DNA of 32,436 bases from a virus (lineage: Duplodnaviria > Caudoviricetes), in the IMG/VR virus record IMGVR_UViG_3300006867_000035, positions 1-32,436 of that record; one strand, given 5' to 3'. Of the stretch, positions 21,019 to 30,431 are shown one piece after another (position 1 is the first letter of the stretch; each line of letters starts with the position of its first letter). A program made the translations under genes and the position numbers. The notes under the pieces were generated by a model. The model did no database searches, was not told where the DNA came from, and saw only the letters and a program-made list of their open reading frames with translations.

Positions 21019-21392
21019 TGTCCTACGATCCTTATAAGGCACTTGAGGCGTACATCGAAAGGGGGTATTTCGATGACGCTTTGAGGATGGTCAACGAGAT
21101 CGATGATGAGATTCTGAAAAGATTACGCTTCCTCGGTATATCTGAGGTAGAACGCTACACGCTGATGTCGAGGCGTACAGCGGCTGAGAAGCTACGCAAC
21201 ATCATCAAAACAAAGATCGAGGAGAGCAAAGTCAGGAAGCGCCGCGAGCAGGAGCAAAGAGAGCGAAAGCGCTCAGAGCGCATTGCTAAAAAACGATTGA
21301 CTGCATCTGCTGAGACTGAGTACCACATCGATCCAGAAATCCTGGCAATGGCCGAGGCAAACGAATACAACCAAGAGGAAATGTATCAATGA
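21018..21392 (+). CDS. Hypothetical coiled-coil protein
   Basis: 124 aa; TAATG coupling. Confidence 0.7.
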   Translation: MSYDPYKALEAYIERGYFDDALRMVNEIDDEILKRLRFLGISEVERYTLMSRRTAAEKLRNIIKTKIEESKVRKRREQEQRERKRSERIAKKRLTASAETEYHIDPEILAMAEANEYNQEEMYQ

Positions 21393-21619
21393 GTCAATAT
21401 AGTCAAATCCTAACTCACTTGAAAAAGCATGGGTCAATCGATCCAATGAAGGCACTGCACCGCTACGGCTGTTACCGTTTAGCGGCTCGCATTCAAGAGA
21501 TGCGACAGCGTGGTCAGCACATTGAAACCGTGATGATCAAGTTTGGTGAAGGCAGGCAACACGCTGAATATCGGTGGCGTGGTGAAAAAAGTTTGACAGA
21601 TAAATCAAACGGGGAGTAA
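21389..21619 (+). CDS. Winged helix-turn-helix protein
   Basis: 'SQ..QIL.HLK.HGSI.P..AL..YGCYRLAARI.E.R..G..I.T'. Confidence 0.8.
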   Translation: MSQYSQILTHLKKHGSIDPMKALHRYGCYRLAARIQEMRQRGQHIETVMIKFGEGRQHAEYRWRGEKSLTDKSNGE

Positions 21620-21622
21620 AGT
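21593..21622 (+). promoter_or_regulatory. Sigma70-type promoter into the non-coding region
   Basis: A-tract, TTGACA (21593-21598), 18 nt, TAAAGT (21617-21622); predicted +1 near 21629. Confidence 0.65.
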
Positions 21623-21710
21623 TTAAAACAGTGCCGGACGGGGTTTGCGAAGCCCCTAGCGAACCGGACTGAGACAAAGGTAAAGTACCCGTGACCGCAC
21701 TCCGGCACTG
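21620..21710 (-). ncRNA. Candidate ~85-90-nt counter-transcribed antisense RNA
   Basis: Starts just downstream of the minus-strand promoter; closed by a perfect 10-bp stem and followed by TTTTAAACTTT. Confidence 0.55.
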
Positions 21711-22020
21711 GTTCAAATTGTGACTAAAGCGTTCTTTTTAGTCAACATCTTTCCTAAAATCAGTCCGATTTTCTACCGTCAAAACAGTCGCATGGTGCTG
21801 TAGCACATTGAAGCCAGATATGACTCCAACCTTTGAGGGCGGGGACAAACAGCGTTAGAGGTGATGTGCCGACTGGCATGAATAGCGTACGCAAGTCGGG
21901 GATACGGTTGAGCTACCGCCAGAGATACCCACTGGGAAAGCACTGCTGATTACTGTGAGTCATTGGACGAGAAAGAAAGCATTAGAGTCTGGGGATATCA
22001 CCCTACGCCCTCTAAATGAC
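21629..22020 (+). ncRNA. Long structured non-coding RNA / leader (possible origin region)
   Basis: No credible ORF in ~420 nt of an otherwise packed genome; multiple stems: 21629-38/21701-10, 21640-56, 21721-28/21737-44, 21756-72, 21820-26/21957-63, 21869-74/21894-99, 21982-87/22010-15. Confidence 0.55.
21717..21745 (-). promoter_or_regulatory. Antisense sigma70-type promoter
   Basis: Minus strand TTGACT (21745-21740)-17 nt-CACAAT (21722-21717); overlaid by inverted repeat TGACTAAA/TTTAGTCA. Confidence 0.6.
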
Positions 22021-22037
22021 AACTACGGGCTGAAGAA

Positions 22038-22580
22038 ATGTTGATACAACTAAGTCGAGAAGACGTACACAAATGCACGATGCTTGGGATGGACACGGTC
22101 AAAGTGTGTGAAATGCAGGGATTTCCCCCCAGGCTTGAGAACAAAGGTCAATCTCGTGAAGAAGCAAATATTTTCGGCTTCAAGGCTGAATTTGCTGTCG
22201 CTAGGCTTTTCGATTTAGAGCCAACAGGACTCAGCATTACATCCGACTACGGCGTTGATCTTTGGATTCAAGATTTCCCGATTGACGTTAAGTTTACAAA
22301 CAAAATCGATGGCCCTTTGATTTTTGACAGCATGGATAAGTTCAAGTCTCAGATCGCTATATTGGTGAGCAGAACTGCTGATGATACAGTCATGAATATT
22401 TGTGGATGGATTGGCAAACCGATGTTTGAAAAACATCATAGAGTCCATAACTTTGGTTGGGGTGATAGGTTAGTGATTGATCAAGATCATTCTGCATTCT
22501 TGCCAATAGAAAGATTGTGGTGGCACATACAAACAAGAAAATTTGAGCCAAAGAAAAAGGAAATAAAAAATGAATCTTAG
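22038..22580 (+). CDS. Hypothetical protein, possible PD-(D/E)xK nuclease fold
   Basis: 180 aa; 'G.KAEFAVA...D.GVDL.....IDVK' pattern. Confidence 0.55.
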   Translation: MLIQLSREDVHKCTMLGMDTVKVCEMQGFPPRLENKGQSREEANIFGFKAEFAVARLFDLEPTGLSITSDYGVDLWIQDFPIDVKFTNKIDGPLIFDSMDKFKSQIAILVSRTADDTVMNICGWIGKPMFEKHHRVHNFGWGDRLVIDQDHSAFLPIERLWWHIQTRKFEPKKKEIKNES

Positions 22581-24093
22581 ACCACACCAGGAGCTAGCCA
22601 TTCAGATGCTCAGAGCAAGTCTGGCGTCAGGAAAGAAAAGACCACTACTCGCGGCTCCATGTTCATTCGGCAAGACAATCACAGCGGCGGCTATGCTCAA
22701 GTCAGCACTCGAAAAGGGTAAGCGTGGAATCTTCATCTGCGATCGCATCAAGCTCGTTCAGCAGAGCCTGGAGGCATTTGATCAGCATGGTTTACCTTTC
22801 GGTGTCATGCAAGGCAATCACGAGTTGGCAAATCCAAACGCGCCAATCCAGATCGCATCGATACAGACCTTGGCTCGCAGGAAGAACATGGTTGACTTTG
22901 ATTTTGCGATTGTGGACGAGGCTCACACACTGTACGAGTACCAGAAAAAGATGATGGAGGCGTATGACAACGTACCGTTCATCGGTCTGTCGGCCACTCC
23001 ATTCAGCAAGGGACTGGGTAAGTATTACGATGACCTGATCGTCCCAGCGACAGCGGAAGATCTGCTGGCTGAAGGGTATCTGTGTCCTGTTGACTACTAC
23101 GGCGGCAAACAAGTTGCACTAGAGGGAGTCAAGACGAGACAGCTATCAACCGGCGGGACTGACTACGATCCTGATTCTCTGGCAAGGGCCGTTGAAGAAG
23201 ACAAGACGCTCACTGGTGATATCGTGAAGAACTGGATGAAGCATGGCGCAGGCCGACAAACAATCGCGTTCTCTCCATCGATCAAGCACTCCAAGTTCCT
23301 GGTAGAACAGTTTAGAGCGGCAGGCATCAGCGCAGAACACATTGATGGATACATGGATGACGAGATCCGCCAAGAGATCTACGAGGCGCATGACGCAGGA
23401 GAGTTCTTGATCTTGTCATGTTCTCGACTACTGAACGTGGGCTATGACGCGCCCCAGGTTAGCTGTCTGATCGACTGCTTCCCGACTCGATCTTACATCG
23501 CATACGTCCAGAGAGCGGGCAGAATCATGCGTACATCACCCGGTAAGGAGAACGCTGTTTATCTCGATCATGCTGGTAACGTGAAGCGATTCGGTTTTGC
23601 TGAGTCGATCATCCCAGACGATCTAGACAACGGCGAGAAAAGATTCCAAGAGAAACAACAAGTTAAGGAAAAAAAGGAGGCCAAGGTCAAAGACTGCCCA
23701 CAGTGCTACCGACAGATGGTAGGTGTTCGCTGTTCTTGTGGGTACGAGATCCCAATGACAAAGCAGATCCAAACAGATGAGAGTGAGTTGGAGCGGCTGA
23801 CCAAGCAGGCGAACAAGGTCTACACACCACAACGTAAGTCGGAGTTCTACGGTGAACTGCTGTACTACGCCAACACTCGTGGTTACAGCCGTGGATGGGC
23901 GGCACATAAGTATCGGGCCAAGTTTGGTGTATGGCCTAACAAGGTGACACCTGTCGATGTGTACGGCATGTCGGACGAGGTGAGTCGATTCATTAAGAGC
24001 CAGAACATAAGAAGCGCATACGCAAGGATGAAGAATGACAGTAGAAACAATCCTCAACAAATTCAACAAGGTACGCAACTCAGGGCAGGATAA
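22570..24093 (+). CDS. Superfamily 2 DEAH helicase with C-terminal Zn ribbon
   Basis: 'LRPHQ', Walker A 'APCSFGKT', 'VDEAH', 'GLSATP', 'VGYDAP', 'QRAGRIMR', 'CPQC...CSCG'. Confidence 0.93.
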   Translation: MNLRPHQELAIQMLRASLASGKKRPLLAAPCSFGKTITAAAMLKSALEKGKRGIFICDRIKLVQQSLEAFDQHGLPFGVMQGNHELANPNAPIQIASIQTLARRKNMVDFDFAIVDEAHTLYEYQKKMMEAYDNVPFIGLSATPFSKGLGKYYDDLIVPATAEDLLAEGYLCPVDYYGGKQVALEGVKTRQLSTGGTDYDPDSLARAVEEDKTLTGDIVKNWMKHGAGRQTIAFSPSIKHSKFLVEQFRAAGISAEHIDGYMDDEIRQEIYEAHDAGEFLILSCSRLLNVGYDAPQVSCLIDCFPTRSYIAYVQRAGRIMRTSPGKENAVYLDHAGNVKRFGFAESIIPDDLDNGEKRFQEKQQVKEKKEAKVKDCPQCYRQMVGVRCSCGYEIPMTKQIQTDESELERLTKQANKVYTPQRKSEFYGELLYYANTRGYSRGWAAHKYRAKFGVWPNKVTPVDVYGMSDEVSRFIKSQNIRSAYARMKNDSRNNPQQIQQGTQLRAG

Positions 24094-24430
24094 GTGGAGG
24101 GTCCAGTGTCCAGTTCACAATGGCAAAGATTTCAACATGAGCATCAAGGAGTGCCAGGACGGCACAGTGTTGGCGCACTGCTTTGTGTGCGGAGCGGATG
24201 GACCAAAGCTCGTTGAGGCTCTCGGTCTGCCACTGTCCGAGATATTTCCGCCAGACAGTCAGTACATACGCCCGGTGTTCAGCAAGAAGATGCAACAGGA
24301 AGCCCTAGAAGACGAGATCGTTCTGAGCATAGCCGGTGAGACGAGAAAGCTCACATTAGAGGATAAGAGGCGCATACGACTGGCTAAGGCTCGACTTGAA
24401 GGCATCGAGCAAATAAAAAATGCATCATAA
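24035..24430 (+). CDS. Primase-type Zn-binding domain protein (no catalytic domain)
   Basis: 131 aa; 'W...CPVH......SI.E..DG.VL.HCF.CGA....V.ALGL...E.FP'. Confidence 0.8.
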   Translation: MTVETILNKFNKVRNSGQDKWRVQCPVHNGKDFNMSIKECQDGTVLAHCFVCGADGPKLVEALGLPLSEIFPPDSQYIRPVFSKKMQQEALEDEIVLSIAGETRKLTLEDKRRIRLAKARLEGIEQIKNAS

Positions 24431-25366: not shown

Positions 25367-25544
25367 GCCAACAGTGGACGATGTGATGAGCTACTGGAGC
25401 AAGTGCGGCTCGATCAAGGACACCGCACAACACTTCAAAAAGACCTACAAGTCAGTCGAGATCATGGTTGCACGTTACAAGCATAACTATGAGCGTAGCT
25501 TCAACTTTCCGCACATCATCCACGCCAAGAGGTTCGGCGCGTGA
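25359..25544 (+). CDS. Small HTH-like protein
   Basis: 'GSIKDTAQHFKKTYKSVE.MV.RY'; start at 25359 or 25344. Confidence 0.55.
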   Translation: MNEPTVDDVMSYWSKCGSIKDTAQHFKKTYKSVEIMVARYKHNYERSFNFPHIIHAKRFGA

Positions 25545-26116
25545 GTGTCACAAATTTCGTTTGCGAGCCATGCTCTAGAGGTGAAATCGCTAAATTCATC
25601 GAAGCTAACCATTACTCGAAATCGATAAACGGCTGTATCAGTGACTACTGTTTCAGACTGATGGATGAAGAAAAAATGATCGGTGCGGCGTTTTTTGGGC
25701 GAATGGCAATGGCTAATCAATGGAAGCCGTACGCAGACGCTGAACACAAGGTTACAGAGCTTAGAAGGCTCTGCTGTGTAGATGACACGCCAAAAAACAC
25801 AGAGTCATTCTTCATTGGGAAAATGCTCAGGTGGTTAAAGGCCAACACTGAGTTGGAGGTTGTCGTCAGCTATTCCGACTTGGAGTATGGGCATGAAGGT
25901 GTCATATACAAGGCATCCAATTTCAAATTTGCAGGGTTCAAGAAGGGTGCGAAGGTAATCTGGTACCAGGGTAGGAAGTATCATGACAAGACAATCAGGA
26001 CAAAATACAAAGGTGAGTTGAAGCCGTTCGCAAAGAGAATCAAGGACGCTCTTGATTGCGGTGATGCTTATTACGCGACAACAAAAGGCAAGAATGCCTA
26101 TGTGTATAAATTGTGA
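25541..26116 (+). CDS. Mom-family (GNAT-fold) DNA adenine modification protein
   Basis: GTG start; 'FIE.NHYS', 'ELRRLC..DDTPKNTES.FI...LRWLK', 'VVSYSD...GH.G.IYKASNF.F.G'. Confidence 0.78.
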   Translation: MSVTNFVCEPCSRGEIAKFIEANHYSKSINGCISDYCFRLMDEEKMIGAAFFGRMAMANQWKPYADAEHKVTELRRLCCVDDTPKNTESFFIGKMLRWLKANTELEVVVSYSDLEYGHEGVIYKASNFKFAGFKKGAKVIWYQGRKYHDKTIRTKYKGELKPFAKRIKDALDCGDAYYATTKGKNAYVYKL

Positions 26117-28368: not shown

Positions 28369-29658
28369 ATGGCAAAGAACAGCATCCTCGGTTTCGTTGA
28401 AGCTATCGGCAGAAAGTTAGCAGATGAGTATCCGAAACCAGCGCCTCCGGTAAAGCAAGTCGATAAGAAGACTGGCAAAGCATTTATGGCGAAAGGCCAG
28501 AATGAGTTGACCAAAGAGATCATGGGAGCCAGAGCTAAGATCGATAAAGACATCAAGGCTGGCAACTACGATCCATACTTCCCGCTTGAAGAAAGATTCT
28601 ATGCCGATCCGACAAAGTATGAGTTCACCGGCAACACCCTGACAGACACGCTTCCAAAGACACAGAAAACCATCGATGCCAAGATCGCTCAGTTCGATAC
28701 TCCACAAGCAAGAGAATCGTTGATCAGAGCATATGAAAAGTCTGCTGATGATCCATTAGCAAGAGACTGGTATGCAATGGGTCAGATGGAAAAGATGTTC
28801 ATTGAAGAATTAGGCGAGAAGGAAGGCAGAAAGGCTTTCAAGGAATTATTCGCTGATGCAATGGCCGCAACTACAGGTGGTGCAGATCCTGGGTCTAATT
28901 TACTTATGGCTCAATACGGCAACTACCTGCGACAGAAAGGTCTTGATGTGCCTGATGCCGCGTATAAGATGCCAGTCCCAATCGGTGGACGCTTTGTAAC
29001 CGGCAACATGGCGATGTATGACAAGGTACTGAAGCAGGGTAATCCACTCACTACGGCTGGACAACCGAAACGCCATAACTTCTCTGCAAACTTCCAGGGT
29101 GATCGCTCACGGGCAACCATCGATGAACAGATGACTTCAGGAATGACCGGTGGAAAGTTTAATGCTCCGCCACAGGGTGCGTATGGAATCCTAGAAAACA
29201 TCGTTGCAGATGAGGCGGCAAAGCGCGGACTACAATCTGCGAATATGCAAGATGTTGCGTGGGCAGGTTACAAAGGCATCGAAGGCAAGCCGATGATTCA
29301 GTTTGTCAACGAGGCTATTGAAAGAACAGCAAGATTAACTGGACGCACCCCAGATGAGGTTGCACGAGGTATCCCAAGAGGAATGCCATTGTACGATGCA
29401 GGCGGAGGATTGATCGCGGCAGGTACGATCTACAAGATGCTATCTAGTGCGGCATCTGATAACGCATCACCAATTCCTGGTGGAATGAGTATGCCGAGCG
29501 CACAGGCTGTTAGTGAGGGTGTTAGATCATCACAAAAGCAAGGTGGCGCAGAAACAGCAAACGCGATTTTAGGTGAACTTCTCGGCTTCATGGCTCCAAC
29601 ATCTGCTGGCGGCGGTGTAGACACAATGGAAGGTTACCTGCGGAGCAAGACACGTTAA
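28369..29658 (+). CDS. Putative virion-associated protein with helical DNA-glycosylase-like domain
   Basis: 429 aa; 'DWY...AATT...N...A...K.HNF.AN..GD....TID..M...Y..LE......A......A.MQ...W' pattern recalls the helical glycosylase-like domain of phage polyvalent proteins; ORF certain, function tentative. Confidence 0.45.
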   Translation: MAKNSILGFVEAIGRKLADEYPKPAPPVKQVDKKTGKAFMAKGQNELTKEIMGARAKIDKDIKAGNYDPYFPLEERFYADPTKYEFTGNTLTDTLPKTQKTIDAKIAQFDTPQARESLIRAYEKSADDPLARDWYAMGQMEKMFIEELGEKEGRKAFKELFADAMAATTGGADPGSNLLMAQYGNYLRQKGLDVPDAAYKMPVPIGGRFVTGNMAMYDKVLKQGNPLTTAGQPKRHNFSANFQGDRSRATIDEQMTSGMTGGKFNAPPQGAYGILENIVADEAAKRGLQSANMQDVAWAGYKGIEGKPMIQFVNEAIERTARLTGRTPDEVARGIPRGMPLYDAGGGLIAAGTIYKMLSSAASDNASPIPGGMSMPSAQAVSEGVRSSQKQGGAETANAILGELLGFMAPTSAGGGVDTMEGYLRSKTR

Positions 29659-30431
29659 TGGCTAGCACTATCCTCAAAATCATTGATCGCCTGATCAAAG
29701 CAGGATACCCAGAAGATACGGCTAAGAAGATCGCTACTGGCGAGTTGCCTATGGATGAGGCTAGCCGTTTAGCAAGGGCAGGAGAGCAGGCAACAGACAC
29801 AGGCCGTGAGTTGTTCCATTGGACTAACCGTGACTTCAATGAGTTTCAGCCTAGCACTAGTGGTAAGTTTGGGCAGGGCGTTTACTTATCACCGAGGCCA
29901 TATTACGGCGAAAAATATGTAGAGCGCGGCGATCCAAGACGCATGAGTGTTTTTGGCCCGAGCAACATAGCCAAGCGCGAAGACATCAACAATGTTGAGA
30001 AAAGCGTCATTGCGGAGATGAAGGCTCAAGGCGTACCTCCGATGGCGATTGGTGATACGTTCTGGAATATGGTGCAGAGCAAACTCAAAGAAAAAGGTTT
30101 TGACGCGCTAGAGTTCGGTGATGAGGTAGTAGTCTTTGACCCTGCGCGAGTCAAAGATGTTAGGGCCGCATTCGATCCAGACAATATCGGCAAGCCAAAC
30201 ATCTTGGGCGGAGCGGCTCCAGTAGCGGCAGGCGGCCTACTTGCGGCATTAGGCTTACCAGAAGACGCTACAGCGGCAGATATCGCTACAGCAGGCATGA
30301 CCATAGGCGACAAGGAAGAGGCTCGCGCAGAGGTCCAGCAGATGATCTTAGACGCACTCCTTGGATTTATGGCTCCAACACCATTAGGTGATGCTACAAT
30401 GGACGCATACAACCAGCGGAAGAACCAGTAA
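29658..30431 (+). CDS. ADP-ribosyltransferase domain protein (ART-PolyVal-like)
   Basis: 257 aa; 'LPMDEASR.ARA', 'FHWT..DF.EF', 'G.GVYLS....Y...Y', 'GFDA', 'EVVVFDP..VK...AAFDP'. Confidence 0.7.
   Translation: MASTILKIIDRLIKAGYPEDTAKKIATGELPMDEASRLARAGEQATDTGRELFHWTNRDFNEFQPSTSGKFGQGVYLSPRPYYGEKYVERGDPRRMSVFGPSNIAKREDINNVEKSVIAEMKAQGVPPMAIGDTFWNMVQSKLKEKGFDALEFGDEVVVFDPARVKDVRAAFDPDNIGKPNILGGAAPVAAGGLLAALGLPEDATAADIATAGMTIGDKEEARAEVQQMILDALLGFMAPTPLGDATMDAYNQRKNQ

Follow-up and report, generated by a model that had tools for sequence, protein, structure and literature searches.

A conserved, probably antisense-gated RNA unit beside the replication genes of aquatic phages, possibly a ColE1-like replication-priming RNA

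A non-coding unit that adjoins the replication genes of uncultured aquatic phages appears to specify a long folded RNA together with a short antisense RNA directed against its 5′ end. As judged by comparison of related loci, both promoters, the 5′ stem-loops, a competing complementarity between two segments termed α and β, and a pseudoknotted 3′ fold are conserved, and the antisense switch is very probably real, whichever output it controls. Taken as a whole, the analysis indicates that the small antisense RNA is likely to decide whether the longer folded RNA starts phage DNA replication; the reading of the unit as a ColE1-like, antisense-gated replication-priming RNA has about an even chance of being correct.

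The window, that is, the whole stretch of 32,436 nucleotides that was analysed, is a 32-kb virus record that is 94% complete (CheckV), and all 52 of its annotated ORFs lie on the + strand. The annotated genes encode portal, capsid, terminase, Sak, exonuclease, SSB, NinB and NinG proteins; no integrase, polymerase or initiator is named among the 52 ORFs, and neither tRNA nor tmRNA genes were found in the window. A preliminary description had drawn attention to a sense/antisense layout at 21593-21780, and all the strings quoted there were verified in the sequence. This layout occupies part of the 418-bp gap that separates a winged-helix gene from a 180-aa ORF, and constitutes the 5′ third of a conserved element that continues from about 21593 to about 22030. 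The winged-helix protein (HTH_39; 21389..21619, +) is a variable neighbour outside the conserved unit, found upstream in 4 of 46 clusters of homologs. The 180-aa ORF (22038..22580, +; weak phrog_18407 match) is an optional insert between the RNA and the helicase, and this slot and its equivalents, in which relatives have other genes or none, form an insertion hotspot for PD-(D/E)XK-like, Mom-like and unknown genes. The insert is followed by a RadD-like SF2 helicase (22570..24093, +), of the same kind as the helicase in the helicase-plus-primase replication units of cultured phages, and by a 131-aa protein that has a primase-type zinc-binding domain and lacks a Toprim domain (24035..24430, +). 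Elsewhere in the window, 25541-26116 is a Mom-family DNA modification gene, and 28369-30431, in the gap from terminase to virion genes, holds two ORFs (429 and 257 aa) without a PHROG match. Cumulative GC skew does not change direction at the element.

Homologs were obtained from loci fetched with the helicase and from pattern scans, two of which returned a divergent subfamily only, and comprise 145 full-length loci, which fall into 46 clusters at 85%. In the helicase-fetched loci, the whole gap is kept at 65-78% identity while the flanking genes have changed. The unit is composed of a 5′ module (promoter, closed structure and counter-promoter), a pyrimidine-rich spacer that contains β, and a 3′ module.

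The 5′ module of the long RNA (21629..21710, +) is closed by a stem formed by CAGTGCCGGA (21629-38) and TCCGGCACTG (21701-10), and includes a hairpin with a variable loop (21640-56, +) and the purine-rich segments α1 (21637-41, +) and α2 (21665-72, +). Among homologs it is a closed structure of 65-86 nt. The perfect 10-bp stem of the preliminary description is supported by pairing and covariation in relatives: of all cells in this stem and the first hairpin, 92% are paired, and 40 cells have changed on both sides, a result equalled in 0 of 500 shuffles. In the window, the fold of the 82-nt sense RNA has a z of -3.4, and the alternative fold of 21637-21780 a z of -3.9.

Two promoters face each other across this module. 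The sense promoter, of the sigma-70 type (21593..21622, +), consists of TTGACA at 21593, an 18-nt spacer and TAAAGT at 21617, with a predicted start near 21629; the counter-promoter (21717..21745, −), recognized by consensus scan and from relatives, consists of TTGACT at 21745, a 17-nt spacer and CACAAT at 21722-17. Both are called in the window, yet taken alone they do not exceed chance (6 sites against 11.5 expected in 10 kb by the consensus scan), and it is because of conservation in relatives that the promoters and folds rise above chance. Promoters were counted in the 38 clusters that have the 5′ module and compared with 500 shuffles; these counts overstate independence, since the clusters are related. 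The counter-promoter is found at a fixed distance from the stem in 29 of the 38 (shuffled mean 1.5, maximum 6 in 500), and the sense promoter is called in 21 (shuffled mean 0.9). Across the 38-cluster set the counter-promoter stretch has a mean identity of 45% and uses ten different -10 hexamers, and two clusters without its -35 possess an extended -10. In a sequence-divergent group, for which the test took in the 22 of 41 loci matched by an anchor pattern, the counter-promoter is present in 11/11 clusters (shuffled mean 0.4) and a minus-strand terminator in 9/11 (shuffled mean 0.2); by eye, the hairpins of these terminators have no T-run on the + side, that is, they are minus-only. The pair of facing promoters proposed at the outset is thereby borne out by conservation. 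Metatranscriptome matches came from four runs and are unstranded contigs from relatives, with a depth of 2-7 and coverage of coding DNA as well. The counter-promoter at 21720-21746 of the window is also an imperfect inverted repeat (TGAC...GTCA), as in many homologs, and might serve as an operator or form an RNA hairpin. Between the counter-promoter and β, short tandem repeats of ~10 bp are expanded in L100, L114 and L126.

The conserved counter-promoter predicts an antisense RNA of ~85-90 nt (21620..21710, −) that is complementary to the whole 5′ module. The self-closed form of ~85 nt that had been suggested for it agrees with its fold (z -2.2). The T-rich tail suggested at the same time is weak, amounting to only four U that overlap the A-rich start region of the sense promoter. 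A separate minus-strand terminator is present in 1 of 35 window-type clusters, and for lack of it the 3′ end of the antisense RNA is uncertain in the group to which the window belongs. In lambda oop and P22 sar RNA, the antisense transcript overlaps the coding region or the ribosome-binding site of its target. The layout examined here is not of the P22 sar type with which it had been compared, because the antisense RNA is predicted to be confined to non-coding DNA and the genes on either side are variable; a lambda oop-type antisense RNA was rejected on the same grounds. The plasmid ctRNA attenuator of the pT181 type depends on an intrinsic terminator that acts conditionally on the sense strand, ahead of the rep gene. 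That comparison also fails, since no conserved + strand intrinsic terminator was found; a terminator-like motif of any sort occurs in 4 of 34 clusters and is absent from the window.

P1 C4 RNA is a closed RNA of ~80 nt located ahead of replication genes and having a complement downstream. P4 CI RNA is described in the same terms, as a closed RNA of ~80 nt ahead of replication genes that is complementary to a downstream site, and is processed from the sense transcript (PMC4825925, as far as its accessible text goes), whereas the units analysed here have a separate conserved minus-strand promoter. If the 82-nt sense piece were excised to act in trans on β as P4 CI and P1 C4 do, the counter-promoter being incidental, then the size, the closed stem, the downstream complement and the location ahead of replication genes would be accounted for; nevertheless, the counter-promoter is kept despite sequence turnover, the divergent clusters have a minus-only terminator, there is no Rfam match and no upstream complement is visible by eye, so that this explanation is very unlikely. 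The conserved counter-promoter, the missing Rfam match and the presence of a downstream complement only also argue against membership of the P4 CI/C4 class, in which the regulator has targets both up- and downstream.

The partner predicted for α is the pyrimidine-rich β (21753..21780, +), which includes TCAGTCCG at 21760-67 and CCGTC at 21776-80 and whose pairing would open the closing stem. In folding calculations, the 5′ module alone keeps its stem (>0.8) in 29 of 34 cases, and when β is added the closing stem is lost in 34/34, with at least 8 α-β pairs in 33/34. The loss of the stem has to be read against the control, in which shuffled spacers also open it in 411 of 680 cases (60%), although in only 3 of 20 for the window. 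The α-β duplex is better than that with shuffled β (≤5/100) in 25 of 34 clusters, and the cognate α has a median rank of 6.5 of 34 for its β; the rank of the cognate β among betas is unremarkable (14.5). In divergent lineages, the alignment contains matched changes on both the α and the β side, that is, compensatory versions. These duplexes and matched changes in relatives support the competing downstream pairing that had been proposed for the sense RNA. The hairpin AAAATC/GATTTT, which had been thought to protect β, is not kept in relatives and has only -2 kcal/mol and a z of -0.4. A search of the 3′ module for a ColE1-like third partner of freed β gave nothing conserved and, in most clusters, nothing better than shuffles.

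The 3′ module (21784..22030, +) is a structured RNA of ~250 nt that contains a pseudoknot (21784-88/21797-801 and 21793-96/21813-16, +) and long-range helices (21850-54/21944-48 and 21837-40/22007-10, +). Four helices have 98.5% of cells paired and double changes at 12 of 18 pairs, and 0 of 500 shuffles scored as high; the structure was derived from the same alignment used to score it, which favours that structure. Unpaired bases are strongly conserved, some being invariant, and G-U pairs are conserved on the transcribed strand, in 25/30 and 28/30 at two positions. Single-sequence folding did not recover the covarying helix of the 3′ module, and a hammerhead core was rejected by eye, because the CUGAUGA-like word in the element varies at G. 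It is conceivable that the 3′ module folds instead as single-stranded DNA, forming a loading site for a primosome or helicase, and that the promoters only open the region. Covariation does not distinguish RNA from single-stranded DNA (PMC5737381), and some homologs have DnaA boxes; RNA is a better match for the conserved G-U pairs and for the way refolding connects the 3′ module with the promoter-proximal one, and a DNA signal is accordingly highly improbable. DnaA boxes number 7 in 24.9 kb of elements and 13 in 201 kb outside (about fourfold denser), a post hoc excess that comes from five clusters, some of them related, with no perfect box in the element of the window. In L058, L064, L070 and L154, matches fall in the interval that separates the counter-promoter from the 3′ module, 113-168 nt ahead of the conserved core; those in L058 and L064 are paired.

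The same slot is occupied by at least two other 3′ RNAs. Among 80 helicase loci, 71 fit one of three 3′ profiles, 7 fit none and 2 have no upstream DNA, the profiles having been built in part from the loci searched. In L001 (190-540), which is otherwise near-identical to the window, the 5′ module of the window and an identical helicase flank a different 3′ RNA. This second type stands behind the same 5′ cassette in L001, L009, L024, L033, L052, L072, L078 and L110; a third type, with only the 3′ end in common, occurs with the same promoter layout in the L020-L063 group (e.g. L025:2490-3000), and two further unclassified types with that layout are seen in L055:2200-2740 and L077:2100-2538. In L179, L343, L351, L358 and L367, the 3′ module follows directly after a stop codon and has neither a 5′ module nor a promoter of its own; L343 and L358 have a helicase of a different, SNF2-like kind downstream of it. 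A long RNA that acts in trans or binds protein, for example as a scaffold for the helicase and the zinc-binding protein, its level being set by the antisense RNA, would agree with the occurrence of the RNA without the 5′ module in five clusters, with the strongly conserved unpaired bases and with the stand-alone orientation in the L148/L186 group. Such a role is unlikely, because the RNA nearly always adjoins replication genes, is not followed by a terminator in most clusters and takes at least three unrelated 3′ folds in the same slot.

The position of the unit relative to genes bears on a more serious alternative. In 35 of the 46 clusters the helicase follows the unit on its own strand, being the first gene in 9, which makes the RNA a leader as well. 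In another 2 of the 46, the unit is inverted, heads Sak/exonuclease/SSB genes and faces away from the helicase, and therefore need not lead the helicase mRNA; a terminator and a promoter downstream of the inverted units are visible by eye and were not called by the scanner. The first gene downstream of the unit is freely exchanged, and 9/46 clusters have no match to this helicase nearby. Three of these nine have downstream a stand-alone protein of 95-116 aa that matches only the C-terminal part of an O-like initiator. The RNA is present in 5/5 loci (2 distinct) fetched with this short protein alone and in 6/13 from a wider search; it is absent from the short-protein loci L400, L401 and L405 and from 4/4 loci with a full-length initiator. 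Members of this C-terminal family, listed at 90-105 aa, are mostly right behind the RNA (L369:2480-2764, L367, L351 and L399), and L400 has a separate winged-helix ORF upstream instead. No element was found near the helicase plus short-primase loci L048-L050 and L076.

RNA-triggered termination can involve a Rho step. The antisense RNA might thus control the downstream replication genes, with the freed β, which is C-rich (490 C against 239 G), causing Rho-dependent termination or leader misfolding. The co-oriented helicase, the location of the RNA 3′ end 5-30 nt ahead of the start codon, and the precedent of P4, in which RNA triggers premature termination of replication genes (PMC4825925, accessible text), fit this explanation. 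It does not explain why a 250-nt pseudoknotted RNA with invariant unpaired bases should follow the switch, and the inverted units, the exchangeable first gene, the lack of a conserved + strand intrinsic terminator and, by eye, of a conserved leader peptide or anti-Shine-Dalgarno helix all speak against it, so that operon control is possible and rather doubtful. Priming and operon control need not be mutually exclusive.

The replication genes that are missing from these phages are consistent with priming by RNA. HTH_36 initiator, Toprim_3 and integrase matches were each found in 0 of 35 element-bearing records, 11 of which are at least 90% complete, which confirms the earlier remark that no integrase or initiator is visible. 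ParA was above the cut-off in 0/35 as well, leaving the postulated non-integrated carrier state unsupported. Ten near-complete genomes carry virion genes of podo- and siphovirus types; no polymerase, full primase or replicative helicase-loader pair is named among the 150 largest of their 254 representative proteins, and a 152-aa protein gave a partial match to an integrase profile. In all 60 records hit, the zinc-binding protein stops 122-203 aa beyond the start of the match, one of these records being truncated at a contig end, and no Toprim match was found in the 60.

An Eru1-type unit consists of a helicase and a Toprim-primase (PMC8044961). According to the accessible part of that source, phages of this type (PS-1, YA3, HS5, Fels-1) likewise have an SF2 helicase of ~500 aa at the O/P position and, after it, a protein with a primase zinc-binding domain; the units described here differ in having no Toprim domain and an antisense-gated RNA upstream. 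Of six cultured relatives with this helicase, five have a full primase of 301-330 aa and one a different primase. The zinc-binding protein resembles three of the six cultured primases weakly (E 1e-4 to 2e-3), and because of this weak likeness its descent from them is only inferred. In HS5 and Vibrio 1.233.A, a Rep-like gene occupies the slot of the RNA and is closely preceded by short direct repeats. In PS-1 and YA3 a full primase coexists with non-coding gaps of 470-610 nt, and replacement of the primase by the RNA is therefore not a clean rule. The gaps of Pseudomonas phage PS-1 (L409:2381-2995) and vB_PaeP_YA3 (L412:2259-2731) share a 5′ stretch, fit none of the element profiles, and have no Rfam match and no initiator gene nearby; the two phages are possible cultured candidates for an RNA in the initiator slot.

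Priming is favoured because the unit occupies the initiator slot of HS5 and Vibrio 1.233.A; because no initiator, polymerase, integrase or Toprim domain was found in its carriers; because its layout and sizes parallel those of ColE1 and MRB plasmids; and because of the inverted units, the loci with O-like C-terminal proteins, the 3′ exchange in L001 and the DnaA boxes. Against it stand the leader position in 35/46 clusters, the lack of a partner for β, the loss of the stem in shuffles, the short-primase and short-initiator loci without the element, and the full primase of the gap-bearing PS-1 and YA3. The preliminary proposal of an RNA-only switch for priming or for expression of the helicase operon is thus upheld in its layout, which is conserved; both outputs are putative, priming being favoured over operon expression. 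That proposal left out the 250-nt pseudoknotted RNA, the most probable object of control by the switch.

The ColE1 RNAs are about 550 and 100 nt long (PMC8683028), compared with ~400 and ~85 nt here. In the available text on ColE1, as in the present units, a short counter-transcript covers the 5′ end of a long non-coding RNA, the stem-loops are mirror images, the RNA refolds during growth (a prediction in the present case) and no initiator protein is used. One feature of the ColE1 type, an antisense gene that overlaps the 5′ end of the long RNA, is indicated here by conserved promoters and folds. The phage units differ in their pseudoknotted, exchangeable 3′ module, in the neighbouring SF2 helicase and zinc-binding protein, and in that priming is only inferred; moreover, no similarity to the ColE1 ori or RNA I was found in Rfam or by BLAST against 72,556 plasmids. 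The MRB replicons of Vibrionaceae (pB1067), whose RNAs are at least 465 and 68 nt (PMC3035462), are also marine, with an ORF-free region of ~500 bp in which an antisense RNA represses a long RNA and related alleles differ in the overlap, as far as that source is accessible. They differ in being plasmids with an RNA I of two stem-loops and a terminator, whereas here a closed multiloop is predicted and the group of the window lacks a separate terminator; neither similarity to the pB1067 ori nor a plasmid location was found (BLAST; PAGEV and other Rfam models).

RNA-based origins are known in extrachromosomal mycobacterial prophages (PMC7157519). Like the present units, they belong to phages, lack a Rep protein and comprise a 400-500-bp non-coding region needed for replication; unlike them, prophages of the RedRock/Alma type are temperate and have parABS beside the RNA, and the accessible text describes no counter-transcript or link to a helicase. 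At T4 oriF and oriG, a promoter transcript primes replication and an SF2 helicase acts on the R-loop, to which putative priming by the present RNA would be similar; no specific sequence is needed for the T4 R-loops, and the part of the source consulted mentions no antisense control (PMC3016281). Within the accessible text of these sources, ColE1 and MRB plasmids provide precedents for antisense-controlled, RNA-primed origins, and some mycobacterial prophages for origins based on RNA.

The unit itself is undescribed as far as the literature search reached: the literature consulted, mostly non-subscription, yielded no account of an RNA origin under antisense control in such phages. Rfam, a match in which would have removed the novelty first claimed, gave no described family, the only hit being a chance snoRNA (E 1.3); the window itself (E up to 5), 14 homolog loci and 5 cultured-phage loci gave none. 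When three variants of the element were compared by BLAST with cultured phages and plasmids, chance matches or nothing were returned. No true homolog was found in the 1/64 parts of bacterial genomes scanned with a loose pattern, and no motif match in four supplementary files of the Fremin 2023 phage RNA catalogue (PMC10690425), whose main files were outside the search.

In the proposed mechanism, the sense promoter would produce a folded RNA of ~400 nt and the facing promoter a blocking antisense RNA of ~85 nt. The nascent RNA is predicted to take first the closed 82-nt form, a mirror image of the antisense RNA, and to refold to the α-β form after ~150 nt have been transcribed; this delay would leave a short window for the antisense RNA to bind. 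Once bound, the antisense RNA would probably sequester α and free β, so that the 3′ module would fall short of its active form. The active RNA, in the least certain step, may be kept on the template near 22030 as an R-loop or primer. It would thus stand in for an origin-binding initiator and for the missing catalytic domain of the primase, and the SF2 helicase and zinc-binding protein would pass the opened DNA on to replication proteins of the host. Three roles are conceivable for the antisense RNA: a limit on copy number, timing of the change to recombination-driven replication, or exclusion of close kin.

For phages without a polymerase, primase or initiator, the start of replication is usually left blank in annotation, and the element offers a clonable candidate of 500 bp with a predicted off switch. 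If the alternative of operon control were right, the unit would represent a new and very conserved antisense control tied to an undescribed large RNA family. A broader interpretation may be ventured, which is put at somewhat less than an even chance: a widespread group of aquatic phages may have replaced the protein initiator and the catalytic domain of the primase of a lambdoid-type module with a portable, antisense-gated RNA origin, in which several unrelated pseudoknotted RNAs can be swapped behind one antisense cassette. This would be an independent reinvention of ColE1 control, borne by phages, serving lytic growth and perhaps incompatibility between kin that co-infect a cell.
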